From Minisyncoccota bacterium (lineage in GTDB: Bacteria; Patescibacteriota; Minisyncoccia; UBA6257): DNA of 64,000 nt. Shown here in pieces: positions 1 through 37,406 of the stretch. The notes beneath the pieces are model-generated. The model worked only from the letters and a program-made list of their open reading frames with translations. It did no database searches and was not told the origin of the DNA. A program made the position numbers and the translations under genes. Where the stretch lies: the NCBI GenBank assembly GCA_035385585.1, contig DAOOKJ010000002.1:595-64594 (forward strand). The letters run 5' to 3'. Each line of letters begins with the position of its first letter. The stretch's first letter is position 1.

Positions 1-1435
1 TGCTTTCGAAAAACTGGATAATACTTTAAAAGTGGCAATGCTAGACCCGGTGAATTTAGAAACTTTAAATTTTTTGGAAAAATATACCGGCTATTTTATT
101 AAGCCATATTTGGCTTTAGATGAGGATCTGCAGGCTGCCTTTGCCCAATATGGCGCCGCTGCTTCTTCGGATTTTCAAAAGATAATCCAGGAAAGCATCC
201 GCGCCTCTCTCAAATTAAGAGGACTAGAAGCAGAAAAAGCAGCAACAGAGTTTCCAATTGTTTCCTTGATTGATAATTTAATTTCCTACGCTGCTTCTTT
301 GAATGCCTCTGATATTCATATTGAGATTTTAGCCGATGAGGTGTTGATTCGATTTAGAATAGATGGAGTACTTAAGGAAGTGTTAAGACTAGCGAAAGAA
401 ATTCATCCTGCGATAGTGGCAAGAATTAAAATTCTAGCGGGGCTGCAGATCGATGAACACAACAAACCTCAAGATGGCCGATTCAAATACAAATATGCCG
501 ATACTGTTTTTGATATCCGGGTTGCAATCATTCCTACTATGTATGGCGAAAAAGTAGAGATGCGTCTTTTAACCGGTTCAGTTAAGCCAATGAGCTTCGG
601 GGAATTAGGAATGCTAGAAGAAACTATAAGAATCGTTGAAGAAAATATTGCTAAAACTCATGGAATGATTTTAGCTACTGGTCCTACTGGCTGCGGTAAG
701 ACTACTACCTTATACGCAATTTTAAATAAAATTAATCGGCCAGAGGTAAATATTATCACCATAGAAGATCCGATTGAGTATGAACTAAAATATGTTAATC
801 AAATCCAAGTTAATCCAAAAGCGGGCATTGATTTTGCCAATGGTTTGCGGGCAATCTTAAGACAGGATCCGAATATAATTATGGTTGGAGAAATCCGCGA
901 TAATGAAACCGCAGAAATCGCCATGCACGCTGCTTTAACCGGTCATTTAGTTTTGTCTACCTTACACACTAATGATGCACCAACTGCTGTGCCTCGTCTT
1001 TTTGAAATGGGTATTCCACCATTTTTAGTTTCTGCCACCGTTAATATGGTCATTGCCCAAAGGTTAGTTAGAAGAATCTGCCGGGAATGCATTGAAAGTT
1101 ATGAAGTGCCTAGTTCTGTTTATGAAGCAGTCAACCAGCAGTTAAAAATAAGTAAGGGCAAGTTCGCCCCGCTATTTAGACCAAAATTACTTTATAGAGG
1201 AAAAGGGTGCAAGTCTTGCGGTTATACTGGTTTCCGGGGCAGATTGGCCATTTATGAAGCATTTGATATTAATGAAAAAGTAAGGGAATATATTCAAAGG
1301 CCGGATTTCTCTATTGACGGTTTGAAAAACATCGCTTTTAGTCAGGGAATGAAAATAATGTTTGAAGATGGACTATCTAAAGCCGAATTAGGACAAACAA
1401 CTATTGAAGAAGTACTGAGAGTGATAAAAGAATAA
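1..1435 (+). CDS. pilB: Type IV pilus assembly ATPase PilB/GspE family, 5' partial (frame is open to the window start)
   Basis: Walker A GPTGCGKTTT, GspE-type ATPase body, C-terminal CxxC...CxxC tetracysteine motif; followed by pilC and pilin genes. Confidence 0.85.
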   Translation, partial: AFEKLDNTLKVAMLDPVNLETLNFLEKYTGYFIKPYLALDEDLQAAFAQYGAAASSDFQKIIQESIRASLKLRGLEAEKAATEFPIVSLIDNLISYAASLNASDIHIEILADEVLIRFRIDGVLKEVLRLAKEIHPAIVARIKILAGLQIDEHNKPQDGRFKYKYADTVFDIRVAIIPTMYGEKVEMRLLTGSVKPMSFGELGMLEETIRIVEENIAKTHGMILATGPTGCGKTTTLYAILNKINRPEVNIITIEDPIEYELKYVNQIQVNPKAGIDFANGLRAILRQDPNIIMVGEIRDNETAEIAMHAALTGHLVLSTLHTNDAPTAVPRLFEMGIPPFLVSATVNMVIAQRLVRRICRECIESYEVPSSVYEAVNQQLKISKGKFAPLFRPKLLYRGKGCKSCGYTGFRGRLAIYEAFDINEKVREYIQRPDFSIDGLKNIAFSQGMKIMFEDGLSKAELGQTTIEEVLRVIKE

Positions 1436-1557
1436 AGGGTTTTCTGGCTTAAACAAAAAAATAAAATATAGTTTACAAGAATAAATTGAGTGCTCGGTGC
1501 TCAATGTGATAGTAAAATTTACTTCGCATTGGGCTCGTAAATTTCAATCACATTAGT

Positions 1558-2769
1558 ATGCTTTTTCATTACGTTGCTCAGGACAAACAAGGAAGAATAA
1601 AAGAAGGCAATGTTAGCCAGCCCAACCTTCAGGCAGCTTTAGATTTTTTAGCCAGCCAGAATTTAAAGCCAATTTCAGTCAGACCAATAGCACTTGAAAA
1701 GGCAAAAAAGGGAATAATAATTCGCAAAGAATCATTAAGTTTGACTGATAAAGTATTTCTAACTAAATATCTGTCTTTGATGCTGAAAGTTGGCACTGAT
1801 TTATTTTCTGCCATTGATATTCTAATTGAAGATTTTGAATCAGGGCCAGCCAGGAGATTTTTGCTGGAAATAAGAAGTAATTTGGAAAAAGGCCAGCCAT
1901 TTTATTTGGCTTTTCAAAACCACCCTGATTATTTTTCTCAAGTGGTCATAAATTTAATAAAAGCCGGGGAGAGCGCTGGAAATCTAGAAAAGACTTTGGA
2001 GCAAGTATCTTCTGACCTGGAAAGAGAAAAAGAACTTTCTAGTAAAGTAAAATCCGCCTTAATTTATCCAATGATATTAGTCGCCACCTCGTTTTTTATG
2101 ATTATATTTCTTGCGACTTTCGCCATCCCCAAATTAAGCGAAATGTTTTTGTCAACCGGCAAAGAAGTGCCACTTTATACAAGAATAGTATTAGGTGTTG
2201 GAATGTTTTTAAACCGCTATGTTTTCATTGTTATTCCTTTAATTATCGGCGTTCCTCTGATTTTATATTTTTATTTTTCTAAAAATAAAACAGGGAAAAT
2301 GTATTTTAATAATCTTTTAGAAAAAATTCCCGTAGTGAAGAATTTGGTAGAGAAAATGGCTTTAGAAAGGTTCGCTTCTGTTTTGGGCTCTCTAATTAAA
2401 GCTGGAATGCCAATTATTCAAGCGGTTGAGGTAACTGCTCAGGCAGTTGGCAATCCCAAATATGAGGCTTCATTAAATAGAATTGCAAAAGAATATTTGA
2501 GTAAAGGAATTTCAATCGGCGATTCTTTCAAAAGAGAGAAAATTTTTCCGGCAGTAGTGTCTAATCTATTAGCCATTGGAGAAAAAGCCGGTCACACAGA
2601 AGAGATATTATTTACTTTATCCACTTTTTACGAATCAGAAATAGATGTTGCTTTAAAAACTTTGGTTTCCTTTATTGAGCCGGCTCTTCTTGTTATAATC
2701 GGAATAATTGTTGGCGGTATTGCTCTGTCTTTAATAGTGCCGGTGTATCAGTTAGTGGGACAATTCTAA
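1558..2769 (+). CDS. pilC: Type IV pilus inner-membrane platform protein PilC/GspF family
   Basis: 403 aa, two GspF-type repeats with TM segments; directly follows pilB. Confidence 0.8.
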   Translation: MLFHYVAQDKQGRIKEGNVSQPNLQAALDFLASQNLKPISVRPIALEKAKKGIIIRKESLSLTDKVFLTKYLSLMLKVGTDLFSAIDILIEDFESGPARRFLLEIRSNLEKGQPFYLAFQNHPDYFSQVVINLIKAGESAGNLEKTLEQVSSDLEREKELSSKVKSALIYPMILVATSFFMIIFLATFAIPKLSEMFLSTGKEVPLYTRIVLGVGMFLNRYVFIVIPLIIGVPLILYFYFSKNKTGKMYFNNLLEKIPVVKNLVEKMALERFASVLGSLIKAGMPIIQAVEVTAQAVGNPKYEASLNRIAKEYLSKGISIGDSFKREKIFPAVVSNLLAIGEKAGHTEEILFTLSTFYESEIDVALKTLVSFIEPALLVIIGIIVGGIALSLIVPVYQLVGQF

Positions 2770-2891
2770 AAATAAATCAAAATTCAAAACTCAAAAGTCA
2801 AAATTATAATTCAAAATTTAAATTCAAAATTTAAATTCAAAATGCAAAAGTAAAGATTTTAAAATTTAAACTTTTTACTTGTAATTTCTTA

Positions 2892-2965
2892 CCTGTCTAA
2901 ACCCCGCCCTTTTTGAAAAAAGAGCAGGATTTAGCAGGGTGAAACTTTTGAGTTTTGAATTTATA
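2892..2965. repeat. Imperfect palindromic element aaaccccgccc-tttttgaaaaaa-gagcaggattt, copy 1 of 3, followed by a conserved tail gtgaaacttttgagttttgaatt
   Basis: Copies at 12381..12450 and 53436..53480. Confidence 0.6.
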
Positions 2966-2970
2966 TTTTT

Positions 2971-3474
2971 ATGTGTTTTCATACAAAATACAAAATACAA
3001 AATACAAAATACAGATTCCGCGGCTTTACTCTTGTAGAACTTCTTATTGTTATTGGTATTACTGCTACAATGGCAACGGTTGGCATTGGTTATTATATGA
3101 ACCAGCAAAAAACTAAACTTTTAGAAACCACTGCTCAAGAGATTGTTAGTTATCTAAAATATGCCCAACAAAAATCAATCTCACAAGAACAGGGATTACA
3201 ATGGGGAGTCCATTTTGAAAACCCCTCTTCTGGTCAGGATTTTTACGCTCTTTATACTGGGACCACTTATTCTAATCCAATTGAAACAAAATATCTCCCA
3301 GAAGGAATAGAATTTTCTATACCCCAAACAGCAAGTTCAGTCGATATTTCGTTTTCCAAACTCACAGGCAAAAATTATAGTGGAACTAACCAATCTGTTA
3401 CCATTCTATCTACCTTTAATAATGCTACTACCACAATTACTGTTTCTTCTTTAGGATTAGTGACTTATCAATAA
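2971..3474 (+). CDS. Type IV pilin-like protein; 18-aa basic leader then G|FTLVELLIVIGI
   Basis: Class III signal: leader ending in G, Phe +1, Glu +5, hydrophobic helix; leader is encoded by a 4x AAAATAC heptanucleotide repeat. Confidence 0.75.
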   Translation: MCFHTKYKIQNTKYRFRGFTLVELLIVIGITATMATVGIGYYMNQQKTKLLETTAQEIVSYLKYAQQKSISQEQGLQWGVHFENPSSGQDFYALYTGTTYSNPIETKYLPEGIEFSIPQTASSVDISFSKLTGKNYSGTNQSVTILSTFNNATTTITVSSLGLVTYQ

Positions 3475-3522
3475 AGTAGCAATAACAATAATAAAATTTT
3501 ATCGTCTTGATCTATTTTTTTC

Positions 3523-3615
3523 ATGTTTTTCCATAGTCCCATTGACGAAGTCCGCATTTACAATCGGGTTCTTAGTCCCGCAGAAATTCAACAGCACTAT
3601 AACTCCAGACAATAA
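3523..3615 (+). pseudogene. Remnant C-terminal tail of a LamG (concanavalin A-like) domain, IDEVRIYNRVLSPAEIQQHY, in the same frame as the upstream pilin but cut off by two in-frame stops (TAA 3472, TGA 3508)
   Basis: Translation MFFHSPIDEVRIYNRVLSPAEIQQHYNSRQ matches the canonical LamG C-terminal DEVRIYNRALSxxEI motif; frame identical to ORF 2971..3474. Confidence 0.45.
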
Positions 3616-3721
3616 CTGACAGCAAAATTTCTAATTTTAAATTTCCAATTTTAAATTTTTAATTTTATAAATAAAAATAATTTCCTAAAAAATTTAGGCG
3701 GATAAAGTTGGTAATTAATTT

Positions 3722-4750
3722 GTGAAACACCAAATGCTCTTTACAAAATACAAAATACAAAATACAAAATACAGACTTTGTGGTCAATCTCTTTTAGAAC
3801 TTCTTTTATCCATTGCAGTCGGGACAATTTTAATTGGCGGGTCGGTGCTATTAATGACTACTTCTTTAAGAAGTTATCAATCAATAAAACAACGATTAAC
3901 TATTAATTCTTTATCTCGACAAGAAGCAGAGGTTATAATTTCCAAGGCTCAAGATAGTTGGCATAGTGTTTATGATTTAACAAGGGCAACAGATTATTAT
4001 ACTACTTCAACTAATAATGTTTGGAGTTTTAATTCTGGCAAAGAAGAATCCACAATTAATAATGTTTCTTATAGAAGATATTTCCAAGTGTTAGATGCTT
4101 TACGAGATGATTCAGGAAACATCGCTACTTCAGGAAATACTGACCCAAATACTTTAAAAATCAATGTTTTTTTGGAATACGGAATTAATTACAATTCTTC
4201 TTCCAGTTTAGTTTTTTATCTTACTCGTTCTTCTAATAATCAAGTTTTTCAACAGACAGACTGGTCTGAAGGACAGGGTCAAACTGGTCCTCTTCCTAAT
4301 CCCGGAAATAAATTTGATACTTCTACCAATATTAACTTCGCTTCAACAACCGGTTCTATTTATATGGCCACAACGACCATCGCGGCAGAATTAACTTCCT
4401 CTATTTTAGATACCGGTGTTGATGGAGGGGCTGGATTCAATTCGCTTCTTTGGCAAGGAAGCAAAGGAACTAATGGTTATGTTAAATTTCAGATTGCTTT
4501 TTCTAATTCTATTACTGGTCCTTGGACGTATTATGGTTGTACAACTATTCCTTCTTCTTGTTTGAATCCAAATAATTGGACAACTGCCAGCAGTTCTTTG
4601 GCTGCTTTAGAACCAAACACCTCCTTACCTTTGCCTTTTTATAGTACTCCTAGCCCTCAGAATAAACGTTATATTCGCTATAAAATTTTTCTTTCCACTT
4701 CTGGCACTTCTCCTCAAATAAATGATATAATAATAAACTGGAGCCCGTAG
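3722..4750 (+). CDS. Large pilin-like protein (prepilin-type N-terminus G|QSLLELLLSIAVG, Ser/Thr/Asn-rich body)
   Basis: Same KYKIQNTKY leader repeat as gene 2971; Glu +5; hydrophobic N-terminal helix. Confidence 0.65.
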   Translation: MKHQMLFTKYKIQNTKYRLCGQSLLELLLSIAVGTILIGGSVLLMTTSLRSYQSIKQRLTINSLSRQEAEVIISKAQDSWHSVYDLTRATDYYTTSTNNVWSFNSGKEESTINNVSYRRYFQVLDALRDDSGNIATSGNTDPNTLKINVFLEYGINYNSSSSLVFYLTRSSNNQVFQQTDWSEGQGQTGPLPNPGNKFDTSTNINFASTTGSIYMATTTIAAELTSSILDTGVDGGAGFNSLLWQGSKGTNGYVKFQIAFSNSITGPWTYYGCTTIPSSCLNPNNWTTASSSLAALEPNTSLPLPFYSTPSPQNKRYIRYKIFLSTSGTSPQINDIIINWSP

Positions 4751-4789
4751 TCACGAAACATGTAACATGAAACTTGAAACATAAAAAAT

Positions 4790-5152
4790 ATGAAACAAAG
4801 CCTCACCGGATCTTTCCATAAAAAATTAAGATTTAAATTAGATAAATTTGTTTCTTTAATTTATCAACTTACTAAAAATTTTCCGAAAGATGAATTATAT
4901 GGAGTTACTTCTCAATTAAGACGTTCTTCTCTTTCAATAATTTTGAATTATATCGAAGGTTATGGTAGAATGAAAAGTAAGGTATACCAAAATTTCATAG
5001 AAATTTCTTACGGCTCCTTAAAAGAAACTAAATATTTACTATACTTTTCTTATAAGGAAAATTATCTTTCTTTTGATGAATATCAAACAACTATACAACT
5101 ATCGGAAGAAATAGGAGCAATGCTTTATGGGATTTTAAAAAATATAAAATAA
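4790..5152 (+). CDS. Four-helix-bundle protein (23S rRNA intervening-sequence protein family, TIGR02436-like)
   Basis: 120 aa, helical pattern and size typical of the family; flanked by inverted GAAACA-heptamer repeat arrays. Confidence 0.55.
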   Translation: MKQSLTGSFHKKLRFKLDKFVSLIYQLTKNFPKDELYGVTSQLRRSSLSIILNYIEGYGRMKSKVYQNFIEISYGSLKETKYLLYFSYKENYLSFDEYQTTIQLSEEIGAMLYGILKNIK

Positions 5153-5157
5153 CTAAT

Positions 5158-6156
5158 ATGTTTCAGGTTTCACGTTTCAAGTTTCATAAAAAAGCTTTTA
5201 CTCTGATGGAACTTTTGCTTTATTCTGGTATTTTAGTGATTTCTGCAGGATTAATTGGCGGGATTGTTTATACTATTTCTAAGGCTAATTTAAGAACCCA
5301 AGCAGAAGAAGAGGTGAATTCTTTAATGATGCGGCTAGAGGAAGTATTTCGCCAAAAAATCGAGGTAGCAAAAGGAGTTAATAGTTTTGGAGTAGGGGGC
5401 GCGACATTGGAATTAAATATGGGCAACTCAACTACGACTTTTAGTTCAAGTAATTTTACTTTGTATTTAAATGAGGGCGCTAGTGATTTACCATTAAACG
5501 ACTCTAATAAAGTGAAAGTTACTTCTTTAGTTTTTTCTCCAACCGGCGCTACTGGCGCGGCAATTTCCAACACTTATCATTACGCTTGGAGTGGCAATGT
5601 TGGTTGGATTGATTTTGGTTATCCAGGTTCAAATGTAAGAGTCCCAACTGGTGAAGGTGAACTAACTGGCGCTGCCTATATTTTATCTGATGGCTCTTGG
5701 ATTTCTTTAAATTGCAAGACCACTGATAGTTGTTCATCGAATAATTATAAAGTAAGTTCTGATTCAAACGGTAATTTAAGCGGTTGGGGATGGTCAGATA
5801 ATTACGGCTGGGTTAGTTTTAGTTGCAAAACTGGCGGTTCAGATGGAGGAGATATTTGTTCTTCTTCTAATTATGGCGTGAAAGTGGCAACAACTACCAC
5901 AGAAAATTATCAGGCAGGCGAATTTGATGGTTATGCTTATTCCGAAAACATTGGCTGGATATCTTTTAGTTGCAAAACTGGCGGCGAAGACAAAACTGAT
6001 ATTTGTGATACTTCTGATTACCGAGTTCAAGACTTAAGGATGAACACAAATGCGGTAAAAATAGATATTACTCTGGAATACAACTCTCAAAAACCAGAAC
6101 AGCAAATTACTAGAACTAACAGTTTTGTTTTTAATATTCTTACCCCAGCGAAATGA
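5158..6156 (+). CDS. Pilin-like protein (leader MFQVSRFKFHKKA|FTLMELL) with four internal ~45-aa repeats carrying GW(I/V)SFSCKTGG...DIC..S.Y.V
   Basis: Prepilin-type N-terminus with Glu +5; repeats read directly from the translation. Confidence 0.6.
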   Translation: MFQVSRFKFHKKAFTLMELLLYSGILVISAGLIGGIVYTISKANLRTQAEEEVNSLMMRLEEVFRQKIEVAKGVNSFGVGGATLELNMGNSTTTFSSSNFTLYLNEGASDLPLNDSNKVKVTSLVFSPTGATGAAISNTYHYAWSGNVGWIDFGYPGSNVRVPTGEGELTGAAYILSDGSWISLNCKTTDSCSSNNYKVSSDSNGNLSGWGWSDNYGWVSFSCKTGGSDGGDICSSSNYGVKVATTTTENYQAGEFDGYAYSENIGWISFSCKTGGEDKTDICDTSDYRVQDLRMNTNAVKIDITLEYNSQKPEQQITRTNSFVFNILTPAK

Positions 6157-6222
6157 GGCACTAAATTTTAATTTTAAAATAATTTTTTAATGTCTTAATT
6201 TTTAAAAATTAACAAATTTAGA

Positions 6223-6639
6223 GTGTTTATTTATAGAATTAAAAATTACAAAATTAAAAATTGTTTTCGTGGAGTCGCCTCTCTTATTACGATTATTTCT
6301 TTAGGGACTTTAATTTTTATTATTTCTTTAGCCACCAGTATTCTTGCTTATTACTCAAATTTAAATATAGATTCCAATAAAAAAGCCACCATCGCAAACT
6401 ATGCTACTTATAGCGGGCTTCAGGATGCCTTGTTAAAATTAGAAAGAAATAAAGATTATAGTTCTTCTTTTAATTTAAGCGTTAATGGGACTAATGATGT
6501 TTCGGTAACTGTTTCCGGTGGGACAATTACTAGCACTGCTACTTTTTCCCAAATTAGCAAGAAATTACAAACAGAAGTTGTTATTGATTCTACCACTGGA
6601 CTAATTATCCCCACTTCAACTAGAGAGTTGACTTTATGA
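6223..6639 (+). CDS. Minor pilin/pseudopilin-like protein (leader ...NCFRG|VASLITIISLGTL)
   Basis: Basic leader then hydrophobic helix; lacks Glu +5; position in pilus cluster. Confidence 0.45.
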   Translation: MFIYRIKNYKIKNCFRGVASLITIISLGTLIFIISLATSILAYYSNLNIDSNKKATIANYATYSGLQDALLKLERNKDYSSSFNLSVNGTNDVSVTVSGGTITSTATFSQISKKLQTEVVIDSTTGLIIPTSTRELTL

Positions 6640-8156
6640 AAAACAATGTTCAAAAAAAGTTTAAAATTAATTGGCAAAAGTTATTAGTGCCTGAGTTTAG
6701 AATTTATGGCGTTTCTTTAAATGATTACGAAATTAAAATTTTCTGCTTTGATAAATCCTTAAATAAAATTTCTACTGTAAATAAATTTGTTTTGCCAGCA
6801 GGAATTATTAAAGAAGGTATTCTTCAAAATCCCGAGGCTTTCAAATCTTTTTTTAGTTCGTTAAAGGAAAAACTATGGCGAAAAGAAAAAAATGTCTGGA
6901 TAATCTTGTCATTACCTTCGGCAAATTTTTATATTAATTATTTTTCTTTGCCAGAATTAAGCGAAACTCAATTAAAGGACGCGGTAATTTTTAATGCTCA
7001 AATGGCAGCCCCTCTCCCCCTAGAAGAATCTTATTTTGATTGGGAAGATTGGGGACTATCGCAAAAAGAGTTTGAAAAAGAAATTTTTATCGCTTTGGGA
7101 ATTAAAAAACAAATTGACCCCTATTGGGAAATCTTTAAAGATTTAGGTCTAAAGATAGTGGCTATTGAGCCTTATGCTTTGTCTTTAACCCGTTTCGTCT
7201 ATAATTTTTTGGAACAAGAAGAACCGGTTTTAATTATTGATGTTAGAAATGATGGGATGGAGTTTGTAATTAGTGAAGGGAAGAAACTTATTTACTTTGA
7301 TTACGATTCCTGGCATGAAATTTTCGGCCAGAATATTCCTCAAAAAATTCTGCCTTCTCATTTAGAAAAACATCTTTTAAATGAAATCCCGATGATTTTA
7401 AACTTTTATTCTTTAAAAAGGCAAAAATCGTTAAAAAGATTTCTTCTTTTAAGCGAAAATGACCAATTATTGGTTTACTTTTACGATTGGCTAAACAAGA
7501 ATTATGGCTTAAATCCCTTGGAATTTAATGTCCCTCCTTTTTTAAAGAACCTTAAAAGAGATTGGGCTGGAGTGGTCGGTTGTGCTTTACGGGGGTTGAT
7601 TTCGCGGGGAAAAGACACTATTGTTTCCTTGGCGCCAATTCAAACCGAAGAGGATTATTATCAATCGCATTTAATAAGCACGGTTTCTTTATGGCTTAAA
7701 ATTATTGTTACTGTTTTGGGGTGTTTTACTTTAGTTTATGGTCTTGTGGATTATGCTCTGTTTATTAGAACAGAAAAAAGGTTTGCGGCTGACGCCATAG
7801 CTGCGCTTAACCCAACTATTCTGCAAAAACAAGAACAACTGCAAAGATCAGCCGATGAATTCAATACTTTAGTCCGAAAGGCAGAAGCAATTAATACTTT
7901 TAAAAAAGATTTTGCTGCTATTTTGAATGAAATTAGTAACCAAACAAAAGATTCTATTACTTTAAAAAGGATTTTTATCACTGATAGCGGTACTTTTAAC
8001 ATTACTATCACCGGAGAGGCAAAATCAAAAGAGGCCATTGTTAATTTTAAGCAGACATTGGAAGAAAAACGGATCCTACAAGATTCTTCTTTGCCGCTTG
8101 AAGCGATGGTGGAAACTCCTCAGGGGGTTAGTTTCATTTTGAACGGAAAGTTATAA
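6636..8156 (+). CDS. PilM-like actin-fold pilus assembly protein fused to a TM segment and PilN-like C-terminal region
   Basis: 506 aa; ~350-aa N-terminal region, one TM helix (VSLWLKIIVTVLGCFTLVYGLV), coiled-coil/periplasmic tail; 4-bp overlap with upstream gene. Confidence 0.45.
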   Translation: MKNNVQKKFKINWQKLLVPEFRIYGVSLNDYEIKIFCFDKSLNKISTVNKFVLPAGIIKEGILQNPEAFKSFFSSLKEKLWRKEKNVWIILSLPSANFYINYFSLPELSETQLKDAVIFNAQMAAPLPLEESYFDWEDWGLSQKEFEKEIFIALGIKKQIDPYWEIFKDLGLKIVAIEPYALSLTRFVYNFLEQEEPVLIIDVRNDGMEFVISEGKKLIYFDYDSWHEIFGQNIPQKILPSHLEKHLLNEIPMILNFYSLKRQKSLKRFLLLSENDQLLVYFYDWLNKNYGLNPLEFNVPPFLKNLKRDWAGVVGCALRGLISRGKDTIVSLAPIQTEEDYYQSHLISTVSLWLKIIVTVLGCFTLVYGLVDYALFIRTEKRFAADAIAALNPTILQKQEQLQRSADEFNTLVRKAEAINTFKKDFAAILNEISNQTKDSITLKRIFITDSGTFNITITGEAKSKEAIVNFKQTLEEKRILQDSSLPLEAMVETPQGVSFILNGKL

Positions 8157-8160
8157 CAAA

Positions 8161-8325
8161 GTCTACCCTCTCTGCCCCAATACTGCTTCGGCACCGGCTG
8201 TCGGCTCGCTCCAGCCGCTGAGCCGCAGCCTAAGCTCTCGGCCTGACGGCTCTTTCGCTTCGCTCAAGACCAAGCCCGTCAGGCCTGCGAGGTTTGCTTC
8301 AGCAGTATTGGGGCAGAGAGAACAG
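8161..8325. repeat. GC-rich structured intergenic element: perfect outer palindrome (ctctctgccccaatactgc...gcagtattggggcagagag) enclosing a ~110-nt GC-rich core with nested inverted repeats; homologous to the element at 19709..19840 in opposite orientation
   Basis: Direct sequence comparison; ~60% GC against an AT-rich background; lies immediately 3' of a plus-strand gene. Confidence 0.7.
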
Positions 8326-10628: not shown

Positions 10629-10685
10629 TATAATGTCTGTATCCTGTATCTTTTATTTATTATTTTTTATTTTTGATTTATTATT

Positions 10686-21794: not shown

Positions 21795-22258
21795 CTCAAT
21801 ATATTACCCCTGAAGCCTACCAAAAATTAAAAAAAGAATTGGAGGAGTTGAAAACTGTCAAACGTCAAGAAATCGCTCAAAGAATTAAAGAAGCCAAAGA
21901 TTTGGGAGATTTATCGGAAAATGCATCGTATCAAGAAGCAAAGGAAGCGCAATCTAAATTGGAAACGCAAATTTTGGAATTAGAATCCTACCTAAAAACT
22001 GTTACCTTAATTCATCATCCTAAAACTAATGGTAAATTAGTAGAGGTCGGTTCAACGGTCTTGGTTCAATCTTTAACTCCGCCCCGCGCCAAAAAAACCT
22101 TTATTATTACTGGTTCATTAGAAGCCAATCCTTTAGAAGGCAGAATTTCTAATGAATCGCCATTAGGCCAAGCCTTTTTGAAAAAGAAAAAAGGAGATAT
22201 AGTAGTTGTCAAAACCCCTAAAGGTGAGGTAAAATATAAGATACTGAAGATAACGTAA
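21791..22258 (+). CDS. greA: Transcription elongation factor GreA
   Basis: Coiled-coil N-terminus with DLSENASY, FKBP-like C-terminus. Confidence 0.85.
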   Translation: MTQYITPEAYQKLKKELEELKTVKRQEIAQRIKEAKDLGDLSENASYQEAKEAQSKLETQILELESYLKTVTLIHHPKTNGKLVEVGSTVLVQSLTPPRAKKTFIITGSLEANPLEGRISNESPLGQAFLKKKKGDIVVVKTPKGEVKYKILKIT

Positions 22259-22399
22259 TCTGTATTCTGTATATTGTATTCAGTATTCTGATTGAGATAA
22301 CAATTTAAAATTTAGAGGATTATGAGTTTAACTTTTAACTTATCTTTTGGATCTTTGAGTTTTAATTTTTAATTTTTTATTTATTATTTTTTATTTATT

Positions 22400-23842
22400 A
22401 TGTTAGACGATATTATCAAAGAAAGAATAAAGAAATTAGAAGAGTTAGAAAAGCAAGGAATTGACCCTTATCCAGAATTTTGTTCTCGGCAATTTTCTTT
22501 AGAGGAAGTTTTAGATAATTTTAGCCTCTGGTCAAAAAAGAAAAAGAAAATAGATGTCGCTGGTAGAATTATGGCTAAAAGGGGACATGGGGGAGTAATA
22601 TTTTCTGATATAAAAGACGAAAAGGGGAAACTTCAGTTAGTGTTTAAGGAAGATAAATTAGGCACAAACCTGATGCAGTTTTTTGAGAAATATTTTGATA
22701 CTGGAGATTTTATTGATGCAAGCGGTACTCTTTTTCTTACTAAAAGCGGTGAAAAAAGTCTTTTAGTTTCAAATTTTCAACTTTTAGCTAAAAGTCTGCG
22801 ACCTTTGCCCAAAGCCTGGTATGGATTAGAAGATATCGAAGAAAGATACCGTCGACGTTATCTTGATTTAATTTTAAATGATGAAGTAAAAGAAAGATTT
22901 ATTTTGCGGTCTAAAATTATTTGTCTTATTCGGGAGTTTTTAAACAAAGAAGGGTATTTAGAAGTAGAAACTCCTGTCTTACAACCGGTTTATGGCGGAG
23001 CCAATGCCGAGCCTTTTATTACCGAACTCAAGGCGCTTAACAGTAAACTTTATTTAAGAATTGCGCCGGAATTATATCTAAAGAGGCTAATAATTGGCAG
23101 TTTTAATAAAATTTATGAAATAGGCAAAAATTTTAGAAACGAAGGAATTGACAGAGAACATAATCCTGAATTTAGCATGCTTGAACTTTACGCTGCTTAT
23201 CAGAACTCCAATGATTTAAAAGTTTTAATTCAAAACTTACTTACTTTTATTGTTAAAAATTTAAATAAAGATTTGCCTAAACCGATAACTTTGCCAAGAA
23301 AATGGCAGGAAATTGACTACGAAAAGTTTCTTTTTAAAAAAACTGGGTTACAACTTCAAGATTCACACAATGAGTGGTTTAAAAAAGCAATAGAATTAAA
23401 AATAGAAGTTAACGCTAATGAAGAAAAGGAAAAGATTTGGGATACGTTTTTTAAGAAGTTCCGGACGGAAATCAAAGAACCAACTTTTATTATAAATCAT
23501 CCAATTGAGATATCGCCCTTGGCTAAAAAATCAAAAGATGCACCGGCTAAAGTCAGCCGTTTCCAACTTATTTTTAAAGGCTGGGAAATAGTTAATGCTT
23601 TTTCTGAATTAAATAATCCCTTGGAGCAAAAACAAAGATTTGAGGTTCAGGTAAAGAAAAGAAAAAAAGGAGATTTAGAAGCCCACCCGAAAGATGTAGA
23701 ATTTATTGAAGCGTTAGAATACGGAATGCCGCCAACCGCCGGCTTAGGCCTTGGAATAGATAGATTAGTGGCAGTTTTAACTGATGCCCCTTCTTTAAAA
23801 GAAATAATTTTCTTTCCATTTATGAAGCCGAAAGAAAAATAA
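22400..23842 (+). CDS. lysS: Lysyl-tRNA synthetase, class II
   Basis: OB-fold N-terminus, FRNEGIDREHNPEF motif 2, GLGIDRL motif 3. Confidence 0.9.
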   Translation: MLDDIIKERIKKLEELEKQGIDPYPEFCSRQFSLEEVLDNFSLWSKKKKKIDVAGRIMAKRGHGGVIFSDIKDEKGKLQLVFKEDKLGTNLMQFFEKYFDTGDFIDASGTLFLTKSGEKSLLVSNFQLLAKSLRPLPKAWYGLEDIEERYRRRYLDLILNDEVKERFILRSKIICLIREFLNKEGYLEVETPVLQPVYGGANAEPFITELKALNSKLYLRIAPELYLKRLIIGSFNKIYEIGKNFRNEGIDREHNPEFSMLELYAAYQNSNDLKVLIQNLLTFIVKNLNKDLPKPITLPRKWQEIDYEKFLFKKTGLQLQDSHNEWFKKAIELKIEVNANEEKEKIWDTFFKKFRTEIKEPTFIINHPIEISPLAKKSKDAPAKVSRFQLIFKGWEIVNAFSELNNPLEQKQRFEVQVKKRKKGDLEAHPKDVEFIEALEYGMPPTAGLGLGIDRLVAVLTDAPSLKEIIFFPFMKPKEK

Positions 23843-36936: not shown

Positions 36937-37017
36937 AATTATAGTTGAGGAGATAAGTCAGGAATGAAAATTGCTTTTCTGTTCGTGATAAACCAGCTTA
37001 TGACTGCCTAAACCCCT

Positions 37018-37102
37018 GTGAGCCGTGCACCACGTAGGGTGCACGGGCCATGAACCCAACGTGGTTTATGGCTTTTTAAAATCGCCCAAAAGGCGATTTT
37101 TT
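37018..37102 (+). repeat. Copy 2 of the two-hairpin element plus terminator hairpin (aaaatcgcccaaaaggcgatttttt)
   Basis: About 90% identical to 36255..36308 over ~55 nt. Confidence 0.6.
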
Positions 37103-37406
37103 GATATAATAGGAATTCAAATGTTTTTTTGATAGATTTTGCCGCTTCTGGAAAGTTTTCCACCTTATTTTTTTGAGTAAAAAATGATACTCTATACTTA
37201 ATATGCAGTTTGAAGAGTTACTTAATCTTTATAAAGAAAAGAAAAAGCCATACAGTAAGATAAAACTAAGAAAACAATGAAATAGTCCCAATTTAAGAAA
37301 ATTCTTAAAAATTCAATAGTCAAAATGTCAAAAGTCAATGGAATGACTAAAATTTAATATGGAGGATAAAAAATATGGACGAGCAGATGACAACATAAAT
37401 TTCTCC

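Follow-up and report, generated by a model that had tools for sequence, protein, structure and literature searches.

In a 64,000-nt stretch of a Minisyncoccota bacterium genome (GenBank assembly GCA_035385585.1, contig DAOOKJ010000002.1, positions 595–64,594; hereafter the window), a gene for a small four-helix-bundle (4HB) protein sits inside a type IV pilus operon, which occupies positions 1–8200 on the + strand. We consider it probable that the 431-nt segment 4755–5185 containing this gene is a cassette of the intervening sequence (IVS) type, that it carries its own arms of heptanucleotide repeats, and that its right arm has been captured as the leader of the downstream pilin. The cassette has a distinct anatomy, polar arms of the same kind recur across the 4HB family, orthologous sites are found empty, occupied and decayed, the cassettes run in the same direction as the operons that hold them, and the right arm is read as pilin leader. 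The core features, with the pilin-like genes named by their first coordinate, are as follows:

3722–4750, + strand: pilin-like gene 3722, upstream of the 4HB cassette; its N_methyl score of 16.1 bits is below the cutoff
4755–4786, + strand: left arm, a GAAACAT array of 4.6 copies at 80% matches, with units GAAACAT, GTAACAT and GAAACTT
4790–5152, + strand: 4HB gene, 120 aa, between the second and third pilin, filling the loop of the stem
5157–5186, + strand: right arm, containing the called array 5160–5186 of GTTTCAA (GTTTCAN units), 3.9 copies at 90% matches
5158–6156, + strand: pilin-like gene 5158, an open reading frame (ORF) with a 13-aa leader at 5158–5196 and its mature part from 5197

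Period-7 arrays were called by Tandem Repeats Finder. The left arm begins 4 nt past the TAG of pilin 3722 and stops 3 nt short of the 4HB ATG, which itself lies within one more unit (ATGAAAC), and its unit is a typical fit to the family consensus given below. The right arm is the reverse complement of the left and holds both the ATG at 5158 and leader codons 1–10. The imperfect inverted repeats of about 28 bp that the initial annotation had placed around the 4HB gene are confirmed as two 29-nt segments, 4755–4783 and 5157–5185, that lie 373 nt apart and are complementary at 25/29 positions (86%). When the 64 kb were scanned in 550-nt tiles, a single other locus reached 25/29 (2770–2798 / 2944–2972, just upstream of pilin 2971); the next best pairs scored 23/29, one of them at pilin 6223, and most tiles scored 18–20. 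In the minimum-free-energy structure predicted for the RNA of 4745–5200 (z = −3.5, with 0/100 dinucleotide shuffles folding as well), the arms form a long-range stem of about 26 bp, interrupted by three single mismatches, that includes the pilin start codon. Could AT-rich low complexity, together with K/Y/F/N codon usage, simply mimic such repeats? The 33% GC of the window and the use of AAA, AAT and TAC codons in basic leaders would fit such an origin, whose probability we nonetheless take to be virtually nil, and it is refuted by the position of the inverted repeat at the top of the window-wide distribution, by the failure of every shuffle to fold as well, by a period of 7 nt and not 3, and by replication of the pattern in 80 independent loci against controls. 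K/Y/F codon bias as the sole cause, which the initial annotation had raised against its own proposal, is likewise ruled out because period-7 arrays also occur in non-coding DNA and beside 4HB genes without a pilin neighbor.

By sequence, the 4HB gene, present in one copy in the window, belongs to the TIGR02436/PF05635 family: its product matches PF05635 (23S_rRNA_IVP) with E = 8.9e-29 and 100.3 bits (cutoff 33.8) and TIGR02436 (‘four helix bundle protein’) with 101.9 bits (cutoff 24). It also matches the solved pentamer PDB 2GSC (Xanthomonas XCC0516; E = 7.8e-12), and by this sequence match a four-helix-bundle fold and homopentameric assembly would be expected for the window protein. Diversity-generating retroelements (DGRs) are common in genomes of the Candidate Phyla Radiation (CPR), and the protein also matches Pfam bAvd (E = 1.8e-11) next to pilins that are variable, as would be expected if it were the Avd of a DGR that diversifies those pilins. 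We judge this extremely improbable, given that the 64 kb contain no ORF of ≥200 aa with a YxDD reverse-transcriptase motif, that the direct repeats of the locus include no template/variable repeat pair, and that the score with the NCBIfam Avd equivalog NF033474, 33.1 bits, falls short of its cutoff of 80, where TIGR02436 scores 102. Among anti-phage defence families we found only a marginal Cas11b match (E = 0.0055), which we took as noise, and as for phage or virus carriers there was no tblastn match in INPHARED and no close relative in IMG/VR.

The arms are a property of the 4HB family. We surveyed 80 loci with 4HB homologues of 53–71% identity, mostly in metagenome-assembled genomes of other Patescibacteria (taxon labels are those of the records). 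The 90-nt flanks on the two sides of each ORF were tested for pairing as an RNA duplex, with dinucleotide shuffles as the reference and 71 genes within the same loci as controls. The flanks formed a duplex at z < −3 in 51/80 homologues vs 2/71 controls, and at z < −2 in 61/80 vs 5/71, so that the check proposed in the initial annotation, inspection of the flanks of other 4HB genes, returned the same inverted arrays. Repeat finding confirmed arms with lengths of 29–56 nt, 82–93% complementarity and a separation of 368–411 nt. The arms lie within a few nucleotides of the 4HB ORF and are nearly always tandem heptamers, at times octamers. Lag-7 autocorrelation is 0.46 in each flank vs 0.27 in controls, and period-7 arrays reach a density of 3.2 per kb no farther than 120 nt from 4HB ORFs vs 0.165 per kb in the rest of the same loci, a difference of about 20-fold. 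Units follow the consensus [A/T][T/C][G/A]N A[A/G]C, as in ATGAAAC, ATGTAAC, ACATAAC and TTGAAAC; of 106 units, 103 have A at position 5 and 99 have C at position 7. Array polarity relative to the ORF is almost invariant (54 sense-only to 0 reverse-only upstream, 49 to 2 downstream), the A-A-C strand lying 5′ of the ORF on the coding strand. The two arms of one cassette fit each other more closely than arms taken from different loci do (median score 16 vs 8), and heptamer type tracks 4HB similarity weakly (r = −0.145, reached by 4/500 permutations). When the type-B orthologous cassettes were read by eye for compensatory changes, their GAAAC cores seemed not to vary, and pairing was frequently missing in the 2-nt spacers.

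Few of these cassettes adjoin pilins: 6/68 downstream neighbors have a pilin motif, 64/79 4HB loci have none within about 3 kb, and downstream N-termini resemble GatA, FtsE, RuvA and SerRS (read from sequence, with no family search run). Both neighbors are co-oriented with the cassette in 56/68 loci and both are opposite in none, a layout in which cassettes would be carried along by the transcripts of their hosts. In a plasmid collection, 4HB matches were cyanobacterial only; complementary heptamer arms at z < −5 flank three of the six genes inspected (L133, L134 and L135, the last with a 40-nt arm at 88% complementarity; L numbers designate retrieved loci and contigs), and a fourth, L132, has visibly inverted arrays (z = −2.1). 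A separate case is L131 (Nostoc PCC 7120 plasmid gamma), where positions 450–1000 hold ACTTCAA-type arrays upstream of the 4HB gene and CTTCTGC/CCTCTGC arrays downstream that are not mutually complementary (z = +1.4), with an ISL3 transposase gene directly upstream; it may be a recombinant or half-replaced cassette.

Because the arrays flank the 4HB gene across the family, with fixed polarity and mostly beside non-pilin genes, the inverted heptamer arrays belong to the 4HB cassette and not to pilin sequence. The initial annotation had suggested that they could be the footprint of a selfish 4HB cassette inserted into a pilin leader and bracketed by pilin-leader sequence. The first half of that picture holds, in that the element is small, apparently selfish and bracketed by arrays; the second does not, the same arms being present beside the GatA-, FtsE-, RuvA- and SerRS-like genes and on cyanobacterial plasmids. 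More broadly, the idea that the arms are pilin-leader copies generated on cassette insertion, or else substrates for shufflon-like inversion or recombination, draws on the facts that the right arm does encode a leader and that leader modules are common to non-orthologous pilins, and we hold it to be very unlikely. Its first part, the pilin-leader origin, is largely refuted by arms at 4HB genes without pilins, on cyanobacterial plasmids and in the Coxiella 23S rRNA gene; its second part is taken up with the population data below.

The direction of derivation, from arm to leader, is settled by orthologous genomic context. No start codon other than the ATG at 5158 is possible ahead of the leader/mature junction KA|FTLME, and this ATG lies inside the right arm, which encodes MFQVSRFKF. 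The pilin 5158 family comprises 269 homologues at E ≤ 1e-5, and we compared the N-termini of the 111 homologues, among the matches listed, in which this part was recognizable. They share a conserved mature N-terminus (FTLMELLIYSGIL) preceded by a hypervariable leader, which has the canonical 6–9 aa (MKFKKAKA type) in 36/111 and 11–42 aa in 74/111. Among the 51 leaders of ≥15 aa, 32 have a 7-residue periodicity, the mark that translation of a heptanucleotide array leaves in the protein. At the empty orthologous site L098, a 41-nt spacer without any array precedes a pilin with an 8-aa leader (MKFRKANA), which runs opposite to the derivation of arms from a pilin leader, and L106, L124 and L125 are further array-free empty sites. 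Orthologues L096, L137, L138 and L139 have the right arm and leader of the window: L096 and L137 carry its cassette and leader type at 63–67% pilin identity, L138 retains arms and leader around a 4HB pseudogene, and L139 has a 37-aa 4HB stub between intact arms. In L097 and L109 the cassette is gone and a relic leader remains.

The same spacer has also received other 4HB lineages. L102 holds a 4HB gene of another lineage with arms CTGTATC.../...GAATACAG, the right one encoding NTEYRIQDTRYRIQNTEYRLHG; L099 and L101 carry an L102-type cassette with an in-frame ORF deletion; and in L103/L129, L116/L127, L118/L111, L108 and L113 there are further cassettes, every one with a distinct unit and leader. 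In all, at least five 4HB lineages, with mutual identities of 14–46%, occupy one orthologous spacer. Across 26 orthologous loci, which are not phylogenetically independent, all 13 with an upstream 4HB ORF have leaders of 13–34 aa and all 5 with leaders of ≤8 aa lack a 4HB gene. Two loci are composite: in L118, at 2501 minus 700 nt, a GTCAAAA-armed 4HB cassette is nested inside the first codons of a GAAAC-type cassette (MEKSPTN...), and in L108 a relic CCAGATT array has become part of the leader, with an entire CAATAAC-armed cassette upstream of it. The related genome L097, from which the 4HB cassette has been lost, encodes a reverse transcriptase of group II intron type (RVT_1 + GIIM) at 5657–6805, on the strand opposite to the pilin block and about 1.2 kb downstream of it.

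Cassettes elsewhere may also reach into neighboring reading frames. Downstream of cassettes beside non-pilin genes (for example L022, L039, L059, L077 and L093, from the set L016–L095), many longest ORFs start inside the right arm (MFHVPCSM..., MLHVPCSM..., VFYALCFM...), with a second Met at the outer end of the arm. Starts and N-termini downstream of 4HB cassettes, such as the MFHVPCSM... extensions, are likely to be miscalled and over-extended by gene callers, or else the extensions are really translated.

Population data bear on the shufflon part of the same alternative, for which the initial annotation had suggested looking for inversion or deletion of 4783–5157. Identical copies of the 4HB protein are encoded on 17 contigs, and of the pilin on 15; those retrieved come from several other metagenome assemblies. 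All 15 near-identical contigs are colinear with the window and have no indel or inversion in 2700–6700, every retrieved contig that reaches upstream carries the cassette, and inversion, deletion or heptamer copy-number variants were absent from these contigs, which are consensus assemblies in which minority variants would be missed. The cassette keeps its orientation in orthologues with as little as 63% pilin identity (L096, L137, L138 and L139), no recombinase is adjacent among the neighbors inspected, and inversion of 4783–5157 would flip the 4HB gene only and alter neither pilin. Shufflon-like switching of the cassette is thus unsupported, whereas exchange between pilin N-terminal modules, the other half of that proposal, does occur. 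In L010 (GCA_020049655.1), a 96%-identical strain, the cassette is almost unchanged (1 mismatch in 446 nt), and its positions 1–920, compared with window 2971–3784, contain a different upstream gene (FN3-like repeats, Cys-rich C-terminus) and an array-free leader (MNFRKFVFLKKKYLFKVQFKA) on the same mature 3722-type pilin, so that leader and upstream gene are swapped with the breakpoint at the leader/mature protein junction. Five contigs of the strain in the window break inside gene 3722, and the AATACAR leader module is found on non-orthologous pilins. Leader-module recombination is therefore real, but as far as visible it does not proceed through the cassette arms.

The initial annotation was also right that heptamer arrays encode the leaders of four pilin-like genes, as the array calls and translations bear out: each of the four has a period-7 array in the 5′ part of its coding sequence, a further one precedes the 4HB gene, and the pilin locus accounts for 7 of the 14 period-7 arrays in the window. 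The arrays and stems outside the cassette are:

2774–2969, + strand: ORF-less inverted heptamer stem, with sense NTCAAAA arrays at 2774–2851 and an antisense arm at 2944–2969
2777–2849: intergenic TCAAAAT array, 10.9 copies
2981–3013: array of 4.7 copies at 100% matches, in the leader of 2971
3625–3667, + strand: antisense-type, AATTTTA-like array upstream of pilin 3722
3742–3773: AATACAA array of 4.6 copies at 100% matches, in the leader of 3722, followed by AATACAGA
6177–6205 / 6239–6267, + strand: weak inverted pair, 79% complementary (23/29), surrounding the GTG of 6223
6237–6262: AATTAAA array of 3.6 copies, encoding the 6223 leader

The ORF-less stem at 2774–2969 has 92–145 nt between its arms, arm pairs that are 92% and 88% complementary and a fold z of −7.1. 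Its arms resemble those of the L118 4HB cassette over 27 nt at 92.6% and 22 nt at 91%, alike in unit and polarity, and on this sequence similarity we read it as an L118-type cassette that lost its 4HB ORF. No 4HB ORF remnants were found in the spacers 2770–2975, 3475–3745, 6157–6240 and 22255–22400 (all E > 0.6). Genes 2971 and 3722 share the near-identical block that had been noted before, 64 nt at 84% identity with about 32 nt of (AATACAA)n identical, and their leader arrays (AATACAA ×4, then AATACAGA...GG) are the right-arm module of L099/L102; 3722 orthologues in L010 and L099 have other, array-free leaders. Selection acting on DNA or RNA had been argued from the identity of these two leaders (ACAAAAT), a conclusion that need not follow, as recent copying or slippage from one unit fits equally. 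The array at 3625–3667 forms no stable stem with the 3722 leader array (fold z = −0.24). At gene 6223, the right part of the 6177–6267 pair is the AATTAAA array that encodes the leader MFIYRIKNYKIKN, a leader type also found on the 5158 orthologues P0039, P0042 and P0091, and the fold of the pair is not significant (z = −0.94). The array leaders of 2971, 3722 and 6223 look like relic or ORF-less arms of other cassettes.

Elsewhere in the window, the arrays of ≥4 copies outside the locus (22255–22290, 22360–22401, 10653–10685 and 37308–37338) all lie at gene boundaries, directly after a stop or directly before an ATG (ATG 10686, ATG 22400). Reverse-complemented, the array at 22255–22290 (CTGTATT ×5) corresponds to the AATACAR leader arrays; it matches the left arm of L099 and lacks a partner arm. 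A GC-rich structured stretch at 36960–37100, followed by a hairpin-plus-T-run in a long intergenic region, gave only sub-threshold Rfam matches and has the motif CTAAACCCC in common with a hairpin at 2896–2943 inside the ORF-less stem.

Two further explanations concern what the arrays do for their host. Neisseria opa genes carry CTCTT repeats in their leader sequence and are a coding-region contingency locus, and by analogy slipped-strand changes in heptamer number could shift the frame and switch the pilins on or off. Perfect arrays of 4.6–4.7 copies in the 5′ coding region of two surface-structure genes are what such a switch would look like, 7 is not a multiple of three, heptamer copies in the Coxiella IVS vary by strain (2 vs 3), and orthologue leaders can differ by 7 aa, equal to three units (26 vs 19 aa). 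We think this quite unlikely, however, in view of the 15 near-identical contigs with no indel in 2700–6700 (consensus assemblies again, so minority variants are possible), of the frame that stays open through the array in 111/111 orthologues with a recognizable N-terminus, and of leader lengths that are stable per type (30 aa across pilins of 58–64% identity, 13 aa in type B); the imperfection of the arms at 4755 and 5160 (80–90% matches) also disfavors slippage.

Alternatively, the arrays could have come first as cis-elements of the host, acting as post-transcriptional operators or hairpins at gene starts, with 4HB genes inserting into their loops. ORF-less arrays in the window (2774–2969, 22255–22290 and those before ATG 10686 and ATG 22400) and 66 arrays away from any 4HB gene in the 80 loci speak for this order of events, as do the arrays of Beggiatoaceae, cyanobacteria, Bacteroidetes and Xanthomonas, which were reported without mention of 4HB genes (PMC4679880, PMC4692102), and the position of rRNA IVSs at hairpin loops, in Coxiella that of helix 45 (PMC4990558). 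We nevertheless regard it as unlikely. The empty orthologous sites L098, L106, L124 and L125 are wholly array-free, polarity is fixed relative to the 4HB ORF that the arms abut, heptamer type correlates with 4HB similarity, five cassette lineages at one site each have a different unit, and ORF-less stems are accounted for by ORF decay of the kind seen in L099, L138 and L139.

Several observations nonetheless count against a cassette that brought its own arms. Period-7 arrays in the 80 loci are about as often away from 4HB genes (66) as beside them (61), so an array needs no ORF to exist and might in principle be the older of the two. The 2971 and 3722 arrays (AATACAA) lack the AAC core, their one link to cassettes is the similarity to the L099/L102 right arm, and the stems at 3722 and 6223 are not significant. 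Arm mismatches comprise 69 G·U and 84 A·C and thus show no G·U excess, so selection specific to the sense RNA is not singled out and it could be as DNA that the stem matters. At the cassette we saw neither a target-site duplication nor a transposase or recombinase (the last by neighbor inspection), motif inspection of the window recognized no gene for RNase III or the prepilin peptidase PilD, and the association between leader length and the 4HB gene comes from loci that share ancestry.

With these points weighed, we still favor a 4HB cassette with its own arms and propose the following sequence of events. The cassette would have entered the spacer between two pilin-like genes that are presumably co-transcribed, where its right arm would have come to supply the sole start codon of 5158 and most of its 13-aa leader, replacing an ancestral leader of about 8 aa. 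This change was probably tolerated, since prepilin leaders are removed before pilus assembly, which would also explain why pilin 5′ ends tolerate arm insertions. In the operon transcript, the structure model suggests that the arms pair into a stem of about 26–29 bp that hides the pilin start codon and that, after the precedent of the Coxiella and Leptospira 23S IVSs, would be a plausible RNase III substrate. The 4HB stop codon (5150–5152) lies 5 nt before the pilin ATG, and a ribosome finishing the 4HB ORF would open the right arm, suggesting that translation of the pilin is coupled to that of the 4HB gene. The putatively pentameric 4HB protein may bind the arrays, which are candidate binding sites because Avd binds RNA and because the arms keep a conserved polar core that a plain stem would not need. 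The leaders of 2971, 3722 and 6223 and the stem at 2774–2969 would then be relics or ORF-less derivatives of similar cassettes.

More tentatively, we speculate that PF05635/TIGR02436 proteins and polar heptamer arrays form a two-part system across phyla, in which the pentameric protein would recognize arrays of NNNNAAC-type units in RNA or single-stranded DNA and perhaps propagate, or exert regulation, through them. We see the pairing in Patescibacteria and Cyanobacteria, and published work describes it in Coxiella; it may also underlie the GGGAATC pairs of Xanthomonas and the TAACTGA arrays. If this is true, ORF-less arrays at gene starts would be dispersed targets or relics of the system, a decades-old excess of heptamer repeats would be explained, and in CPR bacteria the prepilin leaders, long and hypervariable, would have arisen as its translated by-products. 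The 4HB (S23p) family is large, and in the open-access literature we found no function assigned to it and, outside the DGR Avd, only the rRNA IVS context discussed. Against that background, the IVS architecture, an ORF in a loop closed by inverted heptamer arrays, appears as the general form of these genes, which in CPR bacteria live mainly within ordinary protein-coding operons and whose arms can enter host coding sequence. This gives a concrete origin for long, 7-residue-periodic, hypervariable CPR pilin leaders, identifies a hot spot of recurrent insertion (one 40-nt spacer entered by at least five lineages, with pilin 5′ ends colonized repeatedly in Paceibacterota), and ties an orphan protein family, in a way that can be tested, to heptanucleotide repeats whose function is unexplained in the publications we found.

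The remaining genes of the operon frame the cassette as follows:

32–1435, + strand: PilB-like ATPase, labelled without a domain scan of the ORF
1558–2769, + strand: PilC-like protein, likewise labelled without a domain scan of the ORF
2971–3474, + strand: pilin-like gene 2971, an ORF with an N_methyl match and a weak GspH match
6223–6639, + strand: gene 6223, fourth small gene of the pilin block, with a GTG start and an array-encoded N-terminus
6636–8156, + strand: PilM/PilN fusion, following gene 6223

Type IV prepilins were recognized by a basic leader ending in G or A, a hydrophobic N-terminus and Glu at +5. Judged from sequence, three of the genes have such class III signal peptides, with the predicted cleavage contexts RG|FTLVE (2971), CG|QSLLE (3722) and KA|FTLME (5158). 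Their leader/mature junctions read MCFHTKYKIQNTKYRFRG then FTLVE in 2971, MKHQMLFTKYKIQNTKYRLCG then QSLLE in 3722 and MFQVSRFKFHKKA then FTLME in 5158, whose mature part starts FTLMELLLYSGIL at 5197; the N_methyl score of 2971 is 26.7 bits against a cutoff of 21.2. Gene 6223 (MFIYRIKNYKIKNCFRG then VASL) has no Glu at +5, so its status as a pilin is uncertain, and it has no Pfam or NCBIfam match. In 2700–6700, promoter-like matches were at background (21 vs 16.1 ± 4.2) and no terminator-like site was found.

Two further elements lie within or just beyond the operon. Between pilins 2971 and 3722, at 3530–3615, an orphan C-terminal gene fragment (...PIDEVRIYNRVLSPAEIQQHYNSRQ*) is stranded that resembles a LamG/lectin-type tail and that we read as a sign of past rearrangement of the spacer. 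Just downstream of PilM/N, a GC-rich element of 154 nt (8168–8321) carries a perfect 20-bp inverted repeat (CTCTCTGCCCCAATACTGCT / AGCAGTATTGGGGCAGAGAG), folds at −94 kcal/mol (z = −7.9) and has no Rfam match even at E ≤ 1. It is an insertion or replacement polymorphism, because an otherwise 99.99%-identical contig (L002/L012) has a different sequence from 8157 to about 8373.

Among known systems, the DGR Avd shares a homologous fold family with the window protein and forms a positively charged pentameric barrel, to which a defined RNA element binds (bioRxiv 10.1101/2023.10.23.563531), whereas the window has neither a reverse transcriptase nor template/variable repeats and its 4HB protein scores under the Avd cutoff. 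The window sequence is a member of the TIGR02436/S23p family typified by the homopentamer 2GSC, for which none of the open-access papers we found describes inverted heptamer flanks as a family signature. Neisseria opa and the R64 shufflon resemble the locus in having short repeats in the signal-peptide region of surface-structure genes or inverted repeats near pilins; they differ in that no copy-number or inversion polymorphism is seen here and frames are kept and, for the shufflon, in that the window has no Rci-type recombinase (neighbors inspected) or alternative C-terminal segments.

Heptanucleotide repeats have been described in cyanobacteria (short tandemly repeated repetitive sequences, STRR; Calothrix), in Xanthomonas as GGGAATC convergent pairs, and as TAACTGA arrays before start codons; they typically number 2–6 units in Beggiatoaceae and commonly about 4 in Xanthomonas, with up to 14–43, vary by indels in 7-nt steps and lie at gene boundaries in co-oriented operons (PMC4692102, PMC4679880). 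The window arrays share with them the period of 7, the gene-boundary sites and the often convergent inverted pairs, and TAACTGA read as TGATAAC would fit the NNNNAAC unit. Unlike in those reports, which make no link to 4HB genes, the window arrays enclose one, as do those of cyanobacterial plasmids, and some window arrays are translated. In the open-access literature, the only account we found that links the 4HB family to heptamer arrays is that of Coxiella, and we found no general statement.

The closest parallel is the 23S IVS of Coxiella and Leptospira. In Coxiella burnetii it measures 428–444 nt, contains an S23p ORF that is decaying, has a 28-bp terminal stem cut mid-stem by RNase III, and carries three tandem GACAGAT repeats before the ORF, with 2 vs 3 copies between strains (PMC4990558). 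The window element matches it in protein family (PF05635), in size (431 nt), in an ORF within terminal inverted repeats that form a stem of about 28 bp (25/29 in the window), in heptamers ahead of the ORF (GAAACAT in 4.6 copies vs GACAGAT ×3) and in the tendency of the ORF to decay with the RNA stem kept. An rRNA IVS in the strict sense was rejected, as Rfam matches in the window are two tRNAs only, with no rRNA, and no rRNA lies beside the 4HB gene in any of 20 homologous loci tested (0/20). Unlike the 23S IVSs at helix 25 or 45, the window element occupies the spacer of a protein-coding pilus operon, where RNase III excision is putative and would cut an mRNA, and one of its arms is translated as part of the neighboring protein.

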